A stretch of DNA of 62,913 nucleotides, filler included, from Rhabdomonas costata (taxonomy: Eukaryota): the NCBI GenBank assembly GCA_019059605.1. It is 34 parts of 34 records of this genome, joined end to end, with 100 filler letters (N's around TTAATTAATTAA, not from the genome) between each part and the next. Parts side by side here need not be neighbours in the genome. Positions count along the whole stretch, not along the records: positions 51,871 to 53,623 come from JAHMHO010009582.1; positions 53,724 to 55,475 come from JAHMHO010009583.1; 32 more parts are not named here. One strand, written 5' to 3'. Each line of letters starts with the position of its first letter. Position 1 is the first letter of the stretch. The translations under genes and the position numbers were made by a program. A model generated the notes under the pieces. It was not told the origin of the DNA. It made no database searches and saw only the letters and a list, made by a program, of their open reading frames with translations. This document shows positions 1,855 through 62,913 of the stretch, piece by piece.

Positions 1855-3000
1855 GGGTGGGGTGGGCATTGGATCTACCCTCTCATCGGTTGGCGGCGGC
1901 GGCTGTCCAGGTTGAGAAGGACTTCGTCTTCGTCTTCGTCTTCCGGTAGAAAACTAACAGTGTCCAGGATTCGTGCCTGATACGGAATGGGTAGGCTGGT
2001 AAGACCGGGGTCGTGTCCAAAGATGATTTCAAAGGGCATTTCGACTCGCATGGACGTGCGGCTCATCATCAATACCTTTTCAAGGCACAAACAAAAGGGG
2101 GAACTTGTGAAAGATCTCCAAGGATGGATTCAATTCAGAACCAGAGAGTTTATTTTGCCATGTCCTCGGGGCGACGTTTTTTTCTTCAGTTTTCACCGGT
2201 CAGGTTGTCTTGGGTGCCTGGTGCGAAAAACTGGAAGGACAGACAGTGATTCTCGTGCAAGCAACCAGAAATAAAGCAGAGACAAGTGAGCGTGTCTTTG
2301 GCTTTCACGGAATACTGCTTTAAGTTGTGGGGGAAGTTGTGGGGGACCCCCACAAACATGTGGGGTCGCTGTGTGTCATACTCCCCATGCCCGGTTGAAT
2401 TCGCGGGCTAGGAGGGCTGGAGAAAAAGTGCAACCTAGAAACCTAGAAATTTGCTATATATTTTTTGTAATTTCGACACCTCCAAAAATGTCTTGAACAC
2501 TGTTTTGTTTTGCACTTTTTTGTAACGCGATTTTGGGGCCAGATGGGCAGGCCCATTGGGTGGTTGGACCAGAGTGCACCAGGGTAACCCCAAACCGGGA
2601 ACCCCTGGGCTGGCTATGGAGGGTGGGGAGAGAATTGTGGTTGGGCTGCACAGTGGCGGCAGCTTTGAAAAATGTCCCCATAGTGCCCCGCTTCTAGTGC
2701 TAGGCTCCACTTGCGCCAGGTTGGGTTCGTGGGGTTCGTGGCGGTGATTTCTGAGTCCCCTAATTTGTCGCAGTGGTCAGCAACGCTCAGCCTTTCCATG
2801 GTTTTTTGGTTTTCACAGGGCCCTGGGAAGTGAGTCACCTATCGCTGAGGTGTGGCAAATCGTGCTTCCCGTTTGCCTTTGATCTCTGCCAGTGTGTGTG
2901 TGTGGGGGGGGGGGCAGTCGCAGACGCCGAACCACCAGGGGGAGAGCATGGGCTGTGTGCTGGAGTCTTTTTGGGTAAAAAATCCGGCGAGATGCCCTGA

Positions 3001-3330
3001 GACAGCACAGCATGAGACACGAACACACCACAGCACCACCACAGCATCCCCCAACCCCACCAACACCCAACACCCTCACACCCACAGAGTCAAGCACTAC
3101 AGGAACGCTAACACCAGGAACCACACCACCAACGCTACCACCATGAGAGCCAAGAACACCATGAGAGCCGACAACCACCGCAGGAGTAACGCTAACACCA
3201 CCACCACCACTACACACAAGAAGCACAGAGGAAGCATCAACACCAGCAACACCAAGAGCACTAACCCTACGCTAACAGCCTCAACAGTGACACCAACACA
3301 CCAGTACACTACAAGCACACAGAACTACAG
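3001..3330 (-). pseudogene. G/T-rich, possibly nad4-derived mitochondrial-type fragment
   Basis: The minus strand reads VTVEAVSVGLVLL..LMLPLCFL...ALMVFLALMVVALVVWF and, after a frameshift, SVPVV...CSCLMLCCL. This loosely follows nad4 (DGISL.LVLLT..L.PLC.L ... IP ... GS..ML) and has the same skewed composition as the nad5 contig. Confidence 0.3.
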
Positions 3331-3719
3331 ACACAGAGGGCATGGTTGAGAGAGAGCATGGTGTAGAGAGAGCATGGTTGACTACACCCTTCGACTCCAC
3401 TACAGACACACACACCGACTCCTACTCCAACACCAACGGTGAGACCAACACCAACACCACTAGCCCACTACAGCACCAACACCTCCCATCGACACCGGAA
3501 TAGCCCACAGCAACTGGAGACGGAGACGCAGAGACAGCAACACCAACACCACCACACCCTAAGCACTGACACTGACACGGACCCACTCCAACACAACCAC
3601 AATAACTNNNNNNNNNNNNNNNNNNNNNNNNNNNNNNNNNNNNNNNNNNNNTTAATTAATTAANNNNNNNNNNNNNNNNNNNNNNNNNNNNNNNNNNNNN
3701 NNNNNNNGGGGGGTCCCGC

Positions 3720-15540: not shown

Positions 15541-16152
15541 TTAGAGAGGCTTGCGAAATTGAGGGCTGCTTCCCGGAAGCTCCTCCTTGTACACCTCCAA
15601 GGGGTGCTCCACGCAGTACTGCTCCAGATCGCGCAGAAACTCCGCAAGGCTGTCCCACTCCCCGGTGCGTTCAGGTATGTTGTCCACCACGCAGCTCACT
15701 CGCCCGAAGGCGGGGGACCCTGCCGAGCAGTTCAGAAGGTATACTCCAAATTCCCCCTCGGAGCCTATGCACAGCAGCTCGCTGGGCAAGTCCCCCGGCT
15801 GGAGCTCTGGCCGGTCCTCTGCCTCGTTGTCCTCAACACTACCGCGATCCTTGTACGTCATCAAGGAGGCAAGTGGAAAGAGCTGAAAGGTGAAGTACAA
15901 GTCCTGCTCCACACGCCGAAGACCGTTGGCGACCCCGAGAAGCTCAAGGTACTCCGCAGGGGGGCTGACGTTGCGCACTCGGGGAGCCGCAGCCCAGGCG
16001 CCTTCAGGGTCCGACAGGCCCGGGTCCACGACCTCGAAGTGAGGCCTTAGCAAGGACACCAGGGAAGCAACCGCAGAGCTTTCGGAGGGAAGGGGCTGCG
16101 AAGCGGCGGGCTGCTTTGAGGGCGCTTGCCCACTGCCACGTGAACACAGCAT
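15541..16152 (-). CDS. SMI1/KNR4 (SUKH superfamily) domain protein
   Basis: Open frame from ATG 16152 to a stop at 15541. Motifs PPAEYLELLGVANG (LP.dY..fl...NG), LLCIGSEGEFGVYLLNC, FGRV and WDSLAEFL. A pyrimidine tract and AG lie 16 nt upstream of the ATG. Confidence 0.7.
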   Translation of the reverse strand: MLCSRGSGQAPSKQPAASQPLPSESSAVASLVSLLRPHFEVVDPGLSDPEGAWAAAPRVRNVSPPAEYLELLGVANGLRRVEQDLYFTFQLFPLASLMTYKDRGSVEDNEAEDRPELQPGDLPSELLCIGSEGEFGVYLLNCSAGSPAFGRVSCVVDNIPERTGEWDSLAEFLRDLEQYCVEHPLEVYKEELPGSSPQFRKPL

Positions 16153-18127
16153 TGGAAGGAATTCACACCTGCTGGAAGGAAAGTAAGGGGTGGGTGCTGT
16201 GTGGAGGGAGGGCGTATCCACCGTTGCAAAATAAAAAGTGGTTCAAAAGATAATGCGCGCAGTAGCGGGCCACACCACTGCCTTCGGTTTAACGAGCATC
16301 CATTACTCCATCGCAAACCAGCGCCAAACCAGCCAACTCTGTGCAGACAAATCCAATGAGATTGGCTGTTGATGGCATGAGTAAAAGGGTGGAGTCCACA
16401 AATACTGGCCATATTTTTTTTGCGGAGGGATACTGGTCAAAGGCATGACGATGTGTTTAAGCCCATTCCAAACTATGATTTACCCCATCCACAGCAGGCT
16501 TCCCGACCCCAAAAAAGCACAAGTATGATCCGAGGGTCGAACGGAAGCAGTGCACGCACAAAGCGCAAGTGCATACACAAACAAGNNNNNNNNNNNNNNN
16601 NNNNNNNNNNNNNNNNNNNNNNNNNNNNNTTAATTAATTAANNNNNNNNNNNNNNNNNNNNNNNNNNNNNNNNNNNNNNNNNNNNCCCAAAAAAGTTCAA
16701 AAGACTACCCGAGGGGGCGGGGATGAGGGGTTGAGGGGCAGTTTTATTTTACCCAGAGGACACTAGAGTTTTGTCCAGGATGTTTCCTGTTGCAGGTTTT
16801 AGTTGCCATGGAGCCTCGGCCTCTCTCTGACAGACTGATTACATCAAGGATGATTTTTCTATTTTTTTCGTGTCTTATTAGGATTTTTTCCTTTCTCGTT
16901 TCCGTCACAGGGAGTACCTAGTGAGGGATGAAAACAAGGCCAACGTTTTCAATTACCTGGCATAACTGCGACACTCGGAGACATTCGCTCACATGCACTC
17001 GGCGGACACAGCTCCGTTTGTGGTTCCTGCTGTGTGTTGCACTCTCGGTTCCAGCATCGCCTCGATCATCGATCGCTCCCCTCCCCCCTCCCCCGCTTGG
17101 GAAAACGGAAATGCTGGCGCATCCAAGCTTTCTGTTCTCAAGAGGTTGGGCTCTTCATTGCACTTAACCCTGGGATGGGAGTGGTGACCGTGGCCACTGA
17201 TAGCCCTTTTGTGGTATGAGTTATGTGTTCAACTTACGACGACAGCACAACGTTGCACCCCGCGAGGCCTTGTTTCTGCCTTGTCGTTGAACGTCGAAAT
17301 TCAAATCTTTGCATGACGCATGACATTCCGTCACTGTCCTAACACTCCCCCCCCTCGGCCGCTCCGGCAGCGCCGCGGGCTGGTCTCCGCCCCTAATCTA
17401 ATGCTGTCCCACCACCCCGCAAGGGGTTCGCCCTTAGCCGGTGGTGTTGAGTTGAGTTACTTGCATCACCCAAACCCTTTAACCATTTACCCCTGCCCTC
17501 CCATAAAAATGAAAACTCTTCTCGGGTGCACTGGCACAGTTTACCTAACCCTCTGATATTCAGTTACTCATTGTGTTTCCAATGTTGAACGTTTGACTGT
17601 AACCCTTTGCCTTCTTAATTCCAAGATGGGTACCCCTGCGTGGTGGGGGAAACACCGCCCCGCCTCCTCCTCCTCCAATCATCGTATCCCCAACACACAC
17701 ACACACCCTTCCCATGCATGTTCCAACGGTGTCCCTTTGTGCACCCGAGGGAGGAGCACCCAGAACGAACCCGCGTAGAGACGGACCCAGTGCGCAGAGG
17801 TAGAAGCGGACCATCGAGCATCAGAGCCCTTATACGTGGCCAATAGCACTCGCGCCCATCAGTCCACAGTGGTCACCAACAAACCAGCAACCATCAAACA
17901 GGCAAGAGCCAGCCGCAGTGCGCCCAGTACACACACACACGCACCCCATCCAGATATCGGATAGTTTTTCAGGTTGCTTTTGTTTTGCCCACATACCATC
18001 ACAGACACACACACATACACACACAAATAAACTCAACAAATGGATTGGAAAAAGCACACTCAGGTGTCCCTCTCTCAAAAAAAAATGTCAGTTGGAATGG
18101 CATTATTATGATCACCCTCTTTTGTAG

Positions 18128-18223: not shown

Positions 18224-19604
18224 GTTTGCAACAGCATCGGGCCGCTCCGTGGCTTATTCAAACTTCGGCGTTCGTTTTCTCGGCTTTCTAAACCCCCACA
18301 CCTTAGGTTTTGGTGTGATTGCGCCTGTTATGCCTGAATTCTGGATTACCAAATCAGCAGAATGCACCCCAATCCGCCCCATGCCCACTTGCGCGATCTC
18401 GCGCACAGTGCACAGCCTGTTCGCGCACCACAACCCCACNNNNNNNNNNNNNNNNNNNNNNNNNNNNNNNNNNNNNNNNNNNNTTAATTAATTAANNNNN
18501 NNNNNNNNNNNNNNNNNNNNNNNNNNNNNNNNNNNNNNNTTCGGCCGGGTCTGCTTAATATGTCTGAGGATAGGGTCCGTACTTAATGCTGGCACCGGAG
18601 TGGGCCAGAATGCTTCGGTTTGGAGCTGCTGGCTTTTGTGTATTGCTGACCTGCAAAAAGCGGGTAATAATGTTAGCTGGAACACCCAACAGCTAATGTG
18701 TGTGTGTTTGAGAGATACCTGTCTCAACCATTTGCCATTATCTTGAATGCTCGAGACCTCTGTTACTCCTACGGTCTCCGTCCCCCCCCCCAGATATCCA
18801 GAACTCGACTCACCTGTGGGAAAACTACCCCGAGATGTCCCGCGCCCTGGAGGTCCACAACGGGGTTGTACGGCAACTGATCTACCGTCACGGTGTGCTC
18901 TTTCGAACCCCTCCCCTACTCCGCCCAAAAAAACTAAACACGTCAACCGCTTTGATTTGTTTTGGAGGGGTGGGGGGAATGGAAGCAGGGAAATTGTCCT
19001 CCGGACATTGAGATTGTGAATGTTCGTTGCTTGTGGTCCACAACTAACTCATACACCCAAGCCATTTCCCAACTCGCTCGTGTACGCGGGTATTGTGTGA
19101 GTGAGGGGTCTGGAGTGCATTCAGATCGCAACCAATTACGAATTTCACACAAAAAAAATAACTGCATACCATCTCTACCCCTCCCTTTCGCCTGGACGCC
19201 CTACTTGTTGTCCTTACCTCTTCTATGGTTCCAATTATTGCTTCAGTTATCTCACTTGCAGATATCCTTCCTAAGCGCGCGCTTATTGCGCTGCTTTTGT
19301 TGCGTTTTCTTTTTGCTGCGTTTATTTCTGCTTCCTTTGCATTTTCTGCTTTTCCATTTCCTTCGCGTCCTCCTGCGAACTCCTCACCTCCCAACTAGAT
19401 GCGTTCCATTGAACCTTGATCTTACCTTCCTTACCATTCTTACCATTGTTGTTTGTTACTCCTGCCGCAGATTGTCGAGCTGCTGAGGTTGTGCTTCCTT
19501 TTGCGTCTTTTGGTCATTCCCATCTAAAACCCCAAAAGTTGTGTCCTGTGGTCAAAAGATCCGCCTCTGCTGTAATCAGCTCCCCAATTTACGTACACGC
19601 GAAG

Positions 19605-19855
19605 GGGGGTACGAGGTGAAGACCATCGGGGACAGCTTCTTCGTGGCCTTCCCCGACGTTCCCAGCGCGGTGCGGTTCGCGCTGCAGCTCCAACTGGAGA
19701 TGATGACCGCGGAGTGGCCGGAGAGCCTGCTCCGCCTGCCCGACGGCCTGATGGAGCTGGGCCCCTCAGGGAAGTTGCTGTGGCGCGGGCTGAGGGTGAG
19801 GGTAGGGATCCACTTCGGGGTCGCGAAGGTGGAGATGGACCACGACACTCTGAAG
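19605..19855 (+). CDS. Receptor-type adenylate cyclase catalytic domain exon
   Basis: GGYEVKTIGDSFFVAF...EWPESLL...LWRGLRVRVGIHFG, the pattern of trypanosomatid/fungal-type class III adenylate cyclases. GT donor at 19856; the acceptor position is approximate. Confidence 0.92.
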
Positions 19856-20437
19856 GTCGTCGCCCATGCGCACCTTTCAGTCAAAACACCGAATGGAATG
19901 TTTTGTGATGAACCGATGCCCCGCGGCTCACCACTGGATTATGGTGGTCCCCGTAGGCAGCGCTCGTGGTGTGATATGGAAATTTTTGTGTCTCAACGTT
20001 CGGGTCATCGCCTTCTGTCTTTCTTCTTTCACCTCCCTGTCCATATTCAAAATCTACGACCAAGGTTGATCCCTGATTGTGCAGACCATGCCCAGTGGAA
20101 GTTGAAGGAATTCTGCAGTCACTGAATGAGACTGGGAGGATAGCCCAATGAGTGGTTTAGGAATTGTCGTCGCCCCTACTGGTGCGCCTGGGAAGATCCT
20201 GGAGCAAATCATACGTCGATCTGTTGGAATCAATGCGCCCTAAATATCGTAAAATGGGTTGGTTTACGAAAGGCCGGGGACATCACAAACACNNNNNNNN
20301 NNNNNNNNNNNNNNNNNNNNNNNNNNNNNNNNNNNNTTAATTAATTAANNNNNNNNNNNNNNNNNNNNNNNNNNNNNNNNNNNNNNNNNNNNGTGGTGGT
20401 GGGAGGAGGCTTAGGTCAGCCCCCCTACCCACAATAC

Positions 20438-51870: not shown

Positions 51871-52953
51871 GGTTTTGGTTCCGGTGTCAAGGTAGCGGTG
51901 CCTATAGTCATGGTTTCTGGCCTTCGTTTCTGGATTCGCGTCTCTGGGTTCTGGGTTCTGGGTTCTGTCTTCCGGGTTCGCTTCTCTGGATATGGGGTTT
52001 GCCTTCATGTCACATGCGTCGGATTCACGTAGCTGTAACAGCAAGGGGTTTGTTCGGGTTTCTCGGCGTGTCTTCCTCTTACCCATGGGTTTGGGTGTCG
52101 GGTTTGCTTCTCTTGGCCTTCTGTATCCGTTGTTTGCTGGTTTCCATTGCTATGGTTCGTGCTTTGTCTCGTGGTGATTGCGCTTCTGTGGTGCTGGTGT
52201 GGTCTTGCATGGGTTCCGTGGTCTTCGCGTCTCTGGGTTCGGCCTTCGGTGTGGCGCTGGTAATGTCTTCGGCCTTCTTGCCTTCGTTGTGCTTTTGGTC
52301 TCCCTTGCTACGTTTGCTGTTTTTGCTGTGTGTTCTCGTGCTGCTGTAATGCTTGCGTGGGTCTGTGCCGCGTCTGGGGTGCTGGTGGTCTTGGTGCTGG
52401 GGTTTGGTACTTCTACGTAGGGGTATTCCGTTGTCTCGGTGGTTCTGGTGGGCGCGTGTTGGGTGGGTGGGTTCGGGGTTCGGGGTTCGGAGTCGTGCTG
52501 TTTGCTTCCGTGGTGATTCTGGGTTCCTTCGCTGTGTTGAGTGCTTCTAAGGTGGGTGTGCGTACGGAGCTGGTGTTCGTGGGGGTTTGCGTGGGTGTCG
52601 TGCTCTTGGGGTTCGTGGCTTTGGGTGCCGGGCTGTGCGTGGGCGGTGCGGGTATGGACTCTATGGTAGGGTGGTGTCCTTGGGTGTCGCGTGGAGTGGT
52701 GTGGGCGCTGCTGACGGTGTGGACGGTGCTCTGTGGGTCTAGGGTGTGTTGGGGTTGCTGTTGGTGGAGTCGTGGTTGCTGTTGGTTGTGCTGGAGGAGT
52801 CGTGGTTGCTGTTGCTGTTGGTTGTGCTGCTGTTGGTGCGTCTGTGTGGTTGGTGAGGGTGGTGGGAACTAGGGTTGTGTGCTGCTTGGTGCTTCTGTTG
52901 CTGTTGGTGGTGGAGGGTGCGTTGGGTTCATGCTGTGGGTGGTTGGCTGCTGC
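51871..52953 (+). other. G/T-rich, A-poor mosaic with short degenerate repeats, probably of mitochondrial origin
   Basis: Extreme G+T skew. TTCGCGTCTCTGGGTTC occurs twice (about 51935 and 52224) and GGGTT(C/T)GCTTC recurs. Frames are hydrophobic and stop-interrupted, and the segment abuts the nad5 fragment in opposite orientation. Confidence 0.45.
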
Positions 52954-52967
52954 ACGCAACCTGACCC

Positions 52968-53470
52968 ACCGTATCCACTGAACAAACCCGAAAGACAACA
53001 CCAGTGCACGCAGGGAACCCTTGTACACGACCTAAGCCGACCCCACCCCACCATGCACGCTCAACTCACTCCAAGCACCACCACAATCGACACCATGACA
53101 CGAAGGCATACCCGTAGCGAAGGAACCAGAAACACAACACAGACCGACACACGCATCCACACACCCTACCTAGAGCCAACATCATACTAGTGCAAGAACC
53201 CATGATAGCCGAAGACGTACACGCAGAAACCGGTGTTGGCCCTTCCATAGCATACAACAGCCACGATTGCAAACCCAAGAATGCGGACTTGGAAGAGAAC
53301 CCCAAACCCGTAAAGCCGTCACCACACACTCCCACACCACCCAGCACACCCCAAGCACCGTCGACACCTGCACACCCCACAGCATCAGTACTCCACCCCA
53401 ACGTACCCAAGGAAGCAAACCCACACCCAACCAACGCATCGTTTCCTACAGCAACCAACAGCAACACATT
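52968..53470 (-). pseudogene. nad5: nad5 fragment (mitochondrial-type), divergent and frameshifted
   Basis: KSAFLGLQSWLLYAMEGPTPVSA at 53290-53222 matches the diagnostic nad5 motif KSAQ.GLH.WL..AMEGPTPVSA. In another frame downstream, VYKGSL...VQWIR resembles HAFFKALL...QDIR. Confidence 0.85.
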
Positions 53471-54027
53471 CTCTTTCAGGGTTGCTACGAGAAGGCAGTT
53501 GCCAACTCACAAAAGAAAGATCACAAAAAACACAACGTCAACAGGTCGCGACAATCTGTGAGACAGATATAGAAAGGGTTCGGTTTCTGTTGTGCAGGCA
53601 ACCGTACAAAAGAAACAAAACACNNNNNNNNNNNNNNNNNNNNNNNNNNNNNNNNNNNNNNNNNNNNTTAATTAATTAANNNNNNNNNNNNNNNNNNNNN
53701 NNNNNNNNNNNNNNNNNNNNNNNTGTGTGTGTGTGCACTCGCGCAGCGGAATTGTGCAAATAAGGGTTGCTCATTGATACCGGAAAGACACAGTGAATGT
53801 CCACCGTCAACCGCCATATGGAACTGACGCAAAAATGTGATAGGAATTAAAAAGGAGAGAAATTGAAGATGCACACAGTCAGGTGAGGTGCAGCGTCCAC
53901 ATCTGTGCCGGCATACTCCCCCCCCCCACACACACACATGGGGATTACTACTCTGACCAAAGCTCGCCGCACGAAACAAAAGGCTGGTCTTCAAAGAGCT
54001 GGCCACCCAGCAAGGTCTGGTTTTCAG

Positions 54028-58900: not shown

Positions 58901-59674
58901 CGCACGCGGACAAAGTGTGCCCAAAGATACCGCAAAGGAAACAACTTTGCTTCCTTCAGCTTTATAAACTTTTACCCACCTACCCGCTGTTCCAGCAATC
59001 GCTTTTCAAAAACCCACCCGCTTTGGACTTCACGGTCTGGTCGCGGCATGGCGGGGCCCAAGATCCCTGGGACAAGGCACAAAAGCACAAGGATAAGCGG
59101 TACCCTCATGGACGCAGGATGGAGTTACTCCGTGTGGGCCGCGGACAGGCTCGGCGGATTACACGGAGTAACCCCACCCCNNNNNNNNNNNNNNNNNNNN
59201 NNNNNNNNNNNNNNNNNNNNNNNNTTAATTAATTAANNNNNNNNNNNNNNNNNNNNNNNNNNNNNNNNNNNNNNNNNNNNGGTTTGTGGGAAAACCTGTT
59301 ACATGAAGAACCTTCCAGTTGAGGCGCCTAATCACATCGTGTGAAGTGATCTTACCGGGGTTGTGTTTTTTGTCGGAAAACCTGTTACATGAAGAAGTCG
59401 ATCTATTTTCATCCACAGATACCCTTCCCCAGGTCCCCAGGTCCCTAGATTCAATGTTTCCGTTGATCTTCAAAAAAAAAAACGTGGAAAAAAAGTGTGG
59501 AAGAATTCGTCCTTCGCCGGCACTGGAAGCTTGGACCCTGTCGACACAAAAGCAAGGACAGTGGCACCAGGAGCTTTCAAGGAATTCAAATCATCGGGCC
59601 CTTCATTGAGGTGAACTCAAAAACAAGCCTGCACACGCAGAAGTACGCACCCAAACACACACGGATGTACACAC

Positions 59675-61003
<1,329 letters not shown>

Positions 61004-62913
61004 CTATGTGTGGTAACAGTGGACAAGTCAGTCAAGCACCGACATAAGCTGAGCACCAACTGGANNNNNNNNNNNNNNNNNNNNNNNNNNNNNNNNNNNN
61101 NNNNNNNNTTAATTAATTAANNNNNNNNNNNNNNNNNNNNNNNNNNNNNNNNNNNNNNNNNNNNGTTGGGGGGTTTTCTCATTTTTAGCAAAGACAACCT
61201 CAATAAAAGGCCAAAAATGAGAAAACCCCGCATATATAAAAAAGGATCACAGAGTTTTGTCACAGATTGCTGCAGTACCTCGGCTTAAGGTTAGGCTAAG
61301 TAAATCTATGTAGGTCAGTCAAGGCCCAAAAAGGGTCCATTTAGACCCTTGAAAATGCAGCGAAGTCGACAAGCATCCAACAACGACTCAGGATGGACCG
61401 TTCAAGATGCCACATCTAGGCGTAGAAATGGACCCCCCCCCAAAAAAAAGAGCGTCCAAAGTTCTGTAATTAGGTGCAGTGCTCAGTGGCCCTGCTCAGC
61501 AATGACAGAAACGCTCTCCCCACGCGTAAAGAGAAAAATGGGCGAGGAGCGACAACAAGGAGGTAGTCGTGGTGGTGGTAATTGTGAGAGTCGGCGCACA
61601 GCCACACACCGGCAACGCAGCACTGCAGCTGCAGTGTGGGATAGTCGTGATCATCGCTGGAAGGATCCGCGGAGGGGTTTGTGAAGGCCACAGCCTCCAC
61701 TAAGTTGGAGCGGTACGGGCCCTTTCCTTGACACAAGTACCCCCAGAAGTCCGCCACTCTCTGCGCATCGCACACGCACATACCCACAAACACATCAAAA
61801 CAGAATGCGAGCAGGCAATGAGCTCATATCGGGTAACAGGATACGCTGAGATAGGCGGAAATCTTTGGAGGAACGGGGGGGGGGGTACGGGGAAAATCAC
61901 GCGTCAAAGTGAGTGGTTCATAGGATAAGAGGAGAAAATATGAATGCCTTGGGCCACCACTTGACACCAAAACAAAGGCCACTTGAACATTCTAACGGAA
62001 AACCACTGTAGTTGTATTGGTGTTGCTGGTGCCCCGGTTGCTGCACGACTGCTGGTCCGATTTTACAAAAAAGGGTTTCCCTGGAAAACTGAAAAATCTA
62101 TCGCTTGGCCGACTTTTCACCGCTACACAGCGGCGGAGCCAAAAGTCTCCACCAGAAAATGCTGAAAAATTGAAAATCTCTGCAATTGCATGTTTTGTAT
62201 GTCTGACGACACAAAAAAGGTAAACGGAAGACCGGGCCTTTATTGTCTGCTCCCTTTTCCAAAAAAATCAAACCGAACGCGTATCCAGACGTAGGGACGA
62301 AGTGTAAAGGGTGCACCGACGTAGAAGTGATGGTGGAATGCCTCCTAAGACGCTGAAATGATGACTCGATTCTTACCCTATCGCAGGCCTCGAAACCCAA
62401 AATGGTAGAGTGACTCGAAATGGAGCGCGCCGAGCGCGACCCTAACTCATGATGCATATGGATTGAGTGACCGTAAGAACCTTATGGTGGTGGGGGGAAC
62501 CATCGTGGTGACGTGTGATCGTAGCCGCATTATGGCGGTGGATGGAACGGGAGGAGAATGAAGAGGAAGAGCCGTCACCCGCTTCACCGCTGTCACGTTT
62601 ACGCTCGTTCCTACCTTCATGGTCGCATTCTCAGTCCTTTTCCCTTTTCCAGCTCAAGATTACGACACCATCGTCACACTTTCTGCCTTTAACAAACTGC
62701 CTCCGCCCGGAAACCCGGAAACCAAGACACCGGTCCAATCTTCAACAAGGTGTCGGGATAAAATACCCCACCGCGTCGCCAATTGAACTCTGCAATATTG
62801 CCGAACGCGTAGGACCACAACCGGGGAACAAGGATCCTAAATTGGGCAATGCCAAGCCCATTTGCGCAAAGCATTCAGATCACCGAGTTAAGATCGGACC
62901 ATTGAACCCAAAA

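Follow-up and report, generated by a model that had tools for sequence, protein, structure and literature searches.

The mitochondrial DNA (mtDNA) of Euglena gracilis is AT-rich and, being so, offers a precedent for the architecture of the locus described here, not for its composition. It was reported to carry 'numerous short fragments' of nad5 that are non-functional (Spencer & Gray 2011, as given in an excerpt of Dobakova et al. 2015, PMC4700960). For the draft genome of a heterotrophic euglenid, homologues of each of the seven mitochondrial genes were reported on contigs, but extension succeeded for four genes only, with three completed and nad4 partial; nad5 is not among these four (PMC8219788, excerpt). 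Diplonemids carry nad5 as 11 separate modules (Vlcek et al. 2011, PMC3035467; Valach et al. 2017, PMC5658414; excerpts of both). The contig of Rhabdomonas costata described here resembles the mtDNA of E. gracilis in having a short nad5 piece among repeats, on a small molecule or contig with no gene beside it, and in the type of nad5 (WLL.AMEGPTPVSA; best PDB match Euglena ND5). It is unlike E. gracilis in its A content of 5-12% on the G/T-rich strand and in a sharp polarity switch.

The window, that is, the whole stretch of DNA analysed (62,913 nucleotides, filler included, from assembly GCA_019059605.1), consists of 34 contigs of 1743-1784 bp each with spacers between them. Positions 51871-53623 are one complete contig of 1753 bp, bounded by artificial N/TTAATTAATTAA spacers; its features are listed in Table 1. 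The left half is composed of A 5.5, C 17.8, G 39.4 and T 37.2% on the plus strand, and the right half of A 12.4, C 17.0, G 35.3 and T 35.3% on the minus strand. The cumulative G+T excess reaches its maximum at 52952, where the G/T-rich strand changes from plus to minus. The A-poor, G/T-rich composition and the sharp flip in strand skew near 52953 had both been claimed in the preliminary description, and both hold. Each plus frame of the left tract contains 3-4 TAA/TAG stops. Ordinary nuclear composition is absent from every part of the contig, and the bias of the A-poor gene piece is the bias found along its whole length.

Table 1. Features of the contig at 51871-53623 (positions along the window)
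Feature	Position	Strand	Remarks
Left tract	51871-52952	+	G/T-rich, A-poor (A 5.5%), low-complexity; no detectable gene
Tandem repeat	51928-51989	+	Units of 7 and 21 nt, TCTGGGT-type
Tandem repeat, perfect	52469-52490	+	(GGGTTCG)x3
Nested tandem repeats	52753-52839	+	Units of 30, 15, 12 and 6 nt, GTTGCT-type
Polarity switch	52952/52953	.	Peak of cumulative G+T excess
Right tract	52953-53460	-	G/T-rich on minus strand, A ~10%; nad5 frame free of TAA/TAG
Widest nad5 profile alignment	53150-53329	-	Residues 99-158 of the frame; LLHSATLV.AG block lost 3' of 53222
nad5 core	53222-53305	-	28 codons, LGFSSKSAFLGLQSWLLYAMEGPTPVSA; 47.6 bits alone against the clade profile
Contig end	53461-53623	-	Milder skew: A 18, C 22, G 22, T 38% (minus strand); matches nothing

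The nad5 motif KSAFLGLQSWLLYAMEGPTPVSA lies at 53222-53290 on the minus strand and is followed by CTSSAIMGSC. The TM7 motif that distinguishes subunit 5/L from subunits 2 and 4, K-S-A-x-x-x-x-x-x-W-L-(P/L)-x-A-M-E-G-P-T-P-V-S, is present. Up to ...PTPVS, 14 of the 15 residues invariant in 17 relatives are kept; the invariant Asp of WLLDAM is replaced by Tyr. WLL in place of the usual WLP is also found in 16 of the 17 listed relatives, the last having WLM. Conservation is lost abruptly at the 3' side: the TM8 block LLHSATLV.AG (LIHAATMV in most NuoL), which belongs directly after the motif, keeps only 2 of its 10 invariant columns (Fisher p 3e-4 for the drop past ...PVS), and restoring it requires 16 base changes of 10 kinds in 10 codons when compared with the environmental nad5 piece P0002. 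Pfam family PF00361 (Proton_antipo_M) was matched at E 2.5e-4 over residues 107-150 only, with a score of 20.8 bits that lies under the 21.5-bit gathering cut-off for the family. In the PDB search, Euglena ND5 (8iuf_N5) was the best among the 37 matches listed; the others were mostly ND5, NuoL and NdhF chains, with a few of the Mrp-antiporter (MrpA-type) or DabB. Among 1.84 billion representatives, only P0002 and P0003, both short nad5 pieces, matched at E<=0.001. When these two were compared with the whole window by tblastn, matches were obtained at the nad5 site only, with P0002 at E 6e-11 (27 of 46 residues identical), and after correction for composition the nad5 locus was the sole match below E 0.01 for 11 of 11 relatives.

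A profile was built from 11 euglenid-type nad5 sequences and scanned in six frames with TGA read as W and TAG as Y. One domain only was found (profile positions 196-254 of 567, 37 bits, envelope of about 60 codons), and the runner-up in any of the six frames scored -2.1 bits. The core alone exceeds the core with its flanks (41.6 bits against the clade profile), and the parts upstream and downstream of it score -0.4 and 1.8 bits, respectively. The motifs of a full-length collinear gene (GWE.IG, NR.GD, KR..AYST, H..H...K..LF) are not present around this single domain. On these comparisons the nad5 match is real homology, above chance. The single profile domain, the core outscoring core plus flanks, the abrupt 3' loss of conservation and the change of Asp to Tyr indicate a fragment rather than a complete gene. 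A euglenozoan and specifically euglenid-like affinity is supported by the best PDB match, by P0002 and P0003 as nearest relatives, and by WLL for WLP. The clear minus-strand motif and the altered residues in place of LIHAATMV, as previously noted, are thus borne out, but the scan did not recover the later nad5-like motifs said to follow after about 65 codons in a different frame.

The nearest relatives are A-poor nad5 genes of euglenid type from environmental assemblies (P0002-P0004, P0124-P0128 and P0130). P0002 has 8iuf_N5 as its own closest match and shares its ...AYST..H... variant. Amino acids that need A in their codons are as scarce in the contig piece as in P0002-P0004 (16-18%), compared with 41% in the AT-rich P0095. 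The environmental clade shares ...GL(H/Q)SWLL.AMEGPTPVSA with the contig; the identity is 59% with P0002 (46 residues) and 67% with P0004 (39 residues). All of its members keep LLHSATLVCAG, and those that are long enough have ...KRVVA(Y/L)STMVHV... in one frame; the contig copy has neither. In 17 of 17 relatives examined, P0002 and P0003 included, ...PVS(A/S)LLHSATLV... is unbroken. A metagenome scan with the pattern EGPTPVSAL returned at least 80 loci (L001-L080), which are bacterial nuoL, 29-35% identical and uninformative. A group of equally A-poor, euglenid-type nad5 genes was thus encountered in environmental assemblies; no description of such a composition was found in a literature search, which is weak evidence of its absence from print.

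The stop-free nad5 frame and the flank-shuffle tests with p<0.03 hint weakly that nad5 sequence formerly took up more of the right half; the piece would then be what is left of a longer pseudogene in decay, not a cleanly cut short fragment. TAA and TAG are absent from the nad5 frame over the whole right half (671 nt), compared with four and two such stops in the other frames; under the null models used, a frame of this kind arises by chance in 0.9-13% of cases. Coding cannot be concluded from long open frames here, because stops are rare in A-poor DNA, and codon periodicity is weak throughout, the nad5 core included. Alignments with MAFFT and tblastn suggested homology upstream and downstream of the core, but this was not accepted, as the profile gave no score there and the flank-shuffle tests were equivocal (p<0.03 in 3 of 18). 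The upstream part was aligned to different nad5 blocks by two relatives.

Other mitochondrial genes, rRNA and tRNAs were not found on the contig. In Pfam, neither the seven plus-strand ORFs of the left tract nor, under code 4, the 10 ORFs compared besides the nad5 frame gave anything better than E 0.23. Rfam gave no match at the gathering score in the whole window and none at E<=1 on the contig. Among 838 word-sharing candidates, none was homologous to the left ORF 52264-52869 at E<=0.001. Of three left-half ORFs compared with the PDB, two had no match at all. One left-half ORF matched ovine ND6 at E 0.023, in the non-conserved C-terminal part and with no other ND6 matched; the match was rejected as compositional, since ND6 is itself G/T-rich. 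The earlier picture of a scrambled G/T-rich mosaic was therefore overstated, as the one nad5 piece is all that could be detected in the two halves.

The left and right halves are neither copies nor reverse complements of each other. The longest exact inverted word between them measures 15 nt (52810-52824 / 53452-53466) and belongs, with its left copy, to the nested repeats at 52753-52839; in 300 Markov simulations per order, a word at least as long appeared in 2-3%. A further 23 inverted pairs are 12-38 nt long and mostly imperfect, with complementarity down to 71% in some, and weak pairs of this kind are expected from mirror-image compositions. The short repeats earlier said to be common to both halves are a marginal case.

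It is possible, if somewhat doubtful, that the flip at 52952/52953 is not biological, two stretches of a uniformly skewed molecule having been joined as an inverted chimera in the course of whole-genome amplification or of assembly. Multiple-displacement amplification is well known to produce snap-back inversions as an artefact, and a switch from G/T to A/C is found in 3 of the 34 contigs: at 52952/52953, at about 2940 (contig 1855-3607) and at 60563-60646, the last being a perfect palindrome (GT)n-GCGC-(AC)n. One similarly fragmented euglenid draft was obtained from amplified DNA (PMC8219788, excerpt). However, the two arms are not reverse complements, the repeat search of the contig found no long inverted repeat at the switch point, and no unusually stable hairpin is formed at the junction (fold z-score +0.70). 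Convergent arrangements and recombination junctions are moreover expected to be real in fragment-rich mtDNA. A chimera would account for nothing but the flip, and could go with any of the mtDNA, nuclear or module readings of the gene piece itself.

Diplonemid modules resemble the contig in being module-sized gene pieces in G+C-rich, otherwise non-coding DNA (excerpts of the sources above). It is quite improbable that the piece is likewise functional, either a module whose transcript is made whole by diplonemid-like trans-splicing or a cryptogene whose transcript is edited in the manner of kinetoplastids and diplonemids. The core of 84 nt may be compared with the modules of 60-350 bp in Diplonema (PMC3035467, excerpt), and the near-complete set of invariant residues with its abrupt end right after ...PVSA, as well as the nad5 frame free of TAA/TAG, would suit a module. 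Against this, the nearest relatives are unsplit at ...PVSA, the invariant Asp is lost, and the affinity is euglenid. No counterpart of the constant region that diplonemid cassettes have across many chromosomes was found among the other 33 contigs of the window, none of which has sequence in common with the contig. No RNA editing was reported in the euglenid mitochondria studied so far, according to excerpts of PMC4700960 and PMC8219788. An editing cryptogene is unsupported, given the T-rich strand, the contiguous motif of the relatives and the 16 changes of 10 kinds that rescue by substitution would take. In a kinetoplastid U-indel cryptogene the pre-edited strand would be poor in T and its frame would be restored by insertion or deletion of U; here the sense strand has 35% T, and no second motif is found in a shifted frame. 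No single kind of base change restores the lost motif. A-to-G hypermutation of an AT-rich nad5 copy was rejected as well: the composition would fit, but the differences from the relatives are of many kinds. A euglenid mtDNA of about 5% A, in which nad5 is kept in short pieces joined at the RNA level and the 28-codon piece ending after ...PTPVSA is a working module, is accordingly highly improbable; if true, it would place gene fragmentation and trans-splicing of the diplonemid style inside the euglenids as well.

A second skewed tract of the window bears on a nuclear origin. At 2965-3604, the composition is the same as in the present contig and the 5-mer usage correlates with it at r 0.32-0.43, compared with 0 +/- 0.09 for shuffles. 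The remainder of its contig (1855-3607) is nuclear-looking: it is of ordinary composition and has poly-G, (GT)n and a probable start of an ORF. As this tract stands beside nuclear-looking DNA, DNA of this kind may be nuclear or inserted in the nucleus. The piece could accordingly be a NUMT, a short nuclear copy of nad5 with mitochondrial non-coding flanks or inside a nuclear G/T-rich low-complexity tract, which is considered rather unlikely, but is a strong rival of the mtDNA reading. Like NUMTs, it is a short, sharply bounded and slightly damaged copy of a mitochondrial gene, the sharp limits and the single change of Asp to Tyr being as in a recent dead copy, and keto-skewed stretches, shorter and milder, are frequent in the rest of the window, with 36 counted. 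NUMTs differ in having an ordinary nuclear flank, of which there is none within the 1753 bp. The two long tracts have no alignable common sequence (the observed score was reached in 46 of 100 simulations), and, if the flanks were not mitochondrial in origin too, the equal A-poor bias of gene piece and flanks would have arisen by coincidence. The origin of the nearest relatives, all from environmental assemblies, might suggest a contaminant, that is, a contig from another organism of the sample with an A-poor mitochondrial genome. This is very unlikely, given that DNA with this 5-mer style is physically continuous with ordinary sequence of the assembly on the other contig.

The contig has about an even chance of being a single non-functional euglenid-type mitochondrial nad5 fragment in non-coding, skewed, mtDNA-derived sequence of the E. 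gracilis type. One nad5 piece occurs here with three tandem-repeat sites, as short dead gene pieces occur among repeats in E. gracilis. A mitochondrial source would fit the composition, because P0002-P0004 are equally A-poor and the same bias extends along the whole contig. In mtDNA of this type, recombination would scatter short dead gene pieces among repeats, beside intact genes, and the nad5 piece would be a by-product without function; mutation pressure would strip A and C from one strand of the genome. Observed are the identity and length of the piece, the sudden drop in conservation on its 3' side, the lack of further genes, and the skew with the point where it switches; mitochondrial residence, lack of function and recombination as the cause are inferred. 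Of the three readings offered in the preliminary description, fragment-rich mtDNA and NUMT remain the leading ones, whereas the editing cryptogene has no support on the grounds given above.

As a NUMT or an amplification chimera, the contig would be nothing unusual. Short nad5 matches in such assemblies need not represent a functional gene, and caution is advised in their annotation. If it is mitochondrial, a fragment-rich architecture would be compatible with strong strand bias (A ~5% on the G/T-rich strand), and R. costata would represent a second euglenid lineage, after E. gracilis, with a recombination-prone mtDNA littered with dead nad5 pieces.

The window is discontinuous (34 contigs of 1743-1784 bp each, with N runs around TTAATTAATTAA as joints), and the subject of the analysis is exactly one contig, 51871-53623. 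Its minus strand, in the frame beginning at 53623 (TGA=Trp), encodes GLGFSSKSAFLGLQSWLLYAMEGPTPVSACTSSAIMGSC, and the homology of this motif to nad5, which the preliminary description had asserted, is real as judged by sequence searches with Pfam, PDB, HMMER and tblastn. PF00361 matched residues 107-150 only (E 2.5e-4), with 20.8 bits, slightly below the Pfam gathering score of 21.5 bits. Among the 37 sequences listed in the PDB search, the majority were ND5, NuoL and NdhF chains and a few were Mrp-antiporter or DabB chains; the top match among those listed was 8iuf_N5, labeled ND5, an entry from Euglena gracilis. HMMER against 1.84 billion representative proteins gave E ≤ 0.001 for two retrieved proteins only, P0002 (117 aa) and P0003 (105 aa), both short nad5 pieces. 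When these were compared with the whole window by tblastn, the nad5 contig site was the sole match (P0002, E 6e-11, 27/46 identical). Several retrieved proteins (P0002-P0004, P0124-P0128, and P0130) originate from environmental assemblies and are euglenid-type nad5 with very few residues needing A in their codons, always on contigs of about 1-5 kb and called as short ORFs. A metagenome scan for DNA of the relatives was dominated by bacterial nuoL and yielded no useful locus.

A nad5 profile was built from 11 sequences of the same type (P0002-P0005, P0009-P0011, P0016, P0048, P0095, and P0104), which have in common WL(L/M)DAMEGPTPVS(A/S)LLHSATLV and, where long enough, KR.(V/I)A.ST..H. In six frames (TGA=Trp, TAG=Tyr) it found one domain (profile positions 196-254 of 567, 37 bits) and no second one, the runner-up scoring -2.1 bits; in composition-corrected tblastn the nad5 locus was the sole match below E 0.01 for 11 of 11 relatives. 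The later nad5 motifs reported in another frame are therefore a chance product of Val/Gly/Leu-rich translation. In an alignment of 17 relatives (the 11 profile sequences, P0124-P0128, and P0130) 25 columns are invariant. Up to PTPVS the window copy keeps 14 of 15, the exception being Asp to Tyr in WLLDAM, versus 2 of 10 in LLHSATLV.AG directly after it (Fisher p 3e-4), which bears out the described loss of the LLHSATLV-type block. With a clade profile the 28-codon core scored 47.6 bits by itself and 41.6 bits with its flanks; conservation thus ends abruptly at 53222. MAFFT and uncorrected tblastn gave tempting flank alignments, yet the upstream part falls on different nad5 blocks depending on the relative, and flank shuffle tests reached p < 0.03 in 3 of 18. 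In the nad5 frame the whole right half (671 nt) contains no TAA or TAG, and the two remaining frames contain 4 and 2; the probability is 0.9% by block shuffles and 13% by a second-order Markov null. Because these indications of nad5 similarity upstream and downstream of the core are equivocal, a longer, heavily decayed nad5 pseudogene may exist; the demonstrable part is a short fragment.

An editing-dependent cryptogene had also been proposed. The conversion of CTSSAIMGSCTS to the relatives' LLHSATLVCAGV requires no fewer than 16 base changes, of 10 kinds, within 10 codons, so that neither C-to-U nor A-to-I editing fits, and with 35% T the sense strand is the reverse of what a U-insertion cryptogene would show. 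The PTPVS and LLHSATLV.AG blocks are contiguous in the closest relatives, and the proposal is not upheld. For published euglenid cases, PMC4700960 and PMC8219788 report no editing. Diplonemid chromosomes carry a constant region, whereas the nad5 contig shares none with the other 33 window contigs, a weak test confined to the window. A functional gene module retains a very slight chance on account of the good preservation and sharp bounds of the core.

The A-poor, G/T-rich composition and the skew flip near 52953 were confirmed by base counts per half (see table) and by the peak of cumulative G+T excess at 52952; the strand bias extends over the whole contig. The last 160 bp, which had no match to anything, may mark where the skewed domain ends.

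Features of the nad5 contig and of other window contigs (composition on the strand given)
Feature	Position	Strand	Composition or Pfam match
nad5 contig, left half	51871-52952	+	A 5.5, C 17.8, G 39.4, T 37.2%
nad5 contig, right half	52953-53623	-	A 12.4, C 17.0, G 35.3, T 35.3%
nad5 core	53222-53305	-	
Last 160 bp, far milder skew	53461-53623	-	A 18, C 22, G 22, T 38%
Second long G/T-rich, A-poor tract (region 2710-3607, contig 1855-3607)	2965-3604	-	A 8.7, G 37, T 37%
Likely nuclear ORF start, contig 1855-3607	about 2072 to 1878	-	
Perfect palindromic microsatellite (GT)n-GCGC-(AC)n, contig 59281-61064	60563-60646		
ORF	15544-16242	-	SUKH-1 (SMI1/KNR4, PF09346) domain, E 5e-7
ORF	19487-20122	+	Adenylate/guanylate cyclase (PF00211) domain, E 1e-6

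Ten further ORFs of the nad5 contig gave a best Pfam E of 0.23, Rfam gave nothing even at E ≤ 1, no tRNA was found on the contig, and its longest left-half ORF had no relatives. Three left-half ORFs had no PDB match other than ovine ND6 (E 0.023), taken as compositional as it lies in a non-conserved region. Eight other long ORFs from other window contigs matched no Pfam family. Of the short repeats described between the halves, a 15-nt inverted word is the longest in common (equalled in 2-3% of simulations), but the halves are not copies of one another. Although the original observation was largely real, the contig shows neither a scrambled mosaic nor any sign of editing; it is a single short nad5 fragment of euglenid type, probably dead, in A-poor, repeat-bearing, non-coding DNA.

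Residence of the contig in the mitochondrion is given an even chance. In its favor, the bias spans the contig, and amino acids needing A in their codons make up 16-18% of the closest relatives, equal to the nad5 frame, and 41% of AT-rich family members. Loss of A and C from one strand is an outcome of single-stranded DNA deamination, established for animal mtDNA, and by analogy may be the source of the loss here. The P0003 ORF stops exactly at a Tyr of P0002, which would fit a mitochondrial code with TAG as Tyr. For a heterotrophic euglenid draft genome, PMC8219788 describes UAG as Tyr in the mitochondrion and mitochondrial contigs for all seven genes, with only cox1, cox2, and cob completed and nad4 extended in part. 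A small nuclear copy of nad5 (NUMT) in skewed nuclear DNA is considered less likely; in its favor, the similar second tract is joined to nuclear-looking DNA. Outside the tract, contig 1855-3607 is of ordinary composition, with a poly-G run and (GT)n, and ORFs of the tract matched no Pfam family. The tract and the nad5 contig have a common 5-mer style (r 0.32-0.43; control 0 ± 0.09) and no alignable sequence, the observed score being equalled in 46 of 100 simulations. The other 33 contigs contain 36 shorter, milder keto/amino-skewed stretches of 100-395 bp (A or T ≤ about 14%; G+T or A+C ≥ 66%), two of them belonging to the tract, so local strand asymmetry seems general to the assembly, which also favors a NUMT. 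From the tract and the stretches two possibilities follow: mitochondrial non-coding DNA also occurs in the nucleus (or has been joined to nuclear DNA by chimeras), or the skewed DNA is nuclear and contains the fragment as a small NUMT.

A switch from G/T-rich to A/C-rich also occurs near 2940, and a third in the palindromic microsatellite, which may be a genuine palindrome or, in amplified DNA, a snap-back chimera. That 34 contigs contain three polarity switches suggests a cause that recurs, which could be a real DNA property or inverted amplification chimeras. The arms at 52952 lack complementarity and form no stable hairpin (fold z +0.70), so neither is demonstrated there; an inverted amplification artefact is considered a tentative explanation, somewhat less likely than not.

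The probably dead nad5 fragment is another example of a known sort of thing; its sole unusual trait is the extreme strand bias, which is common to the environmental nad5 clade.
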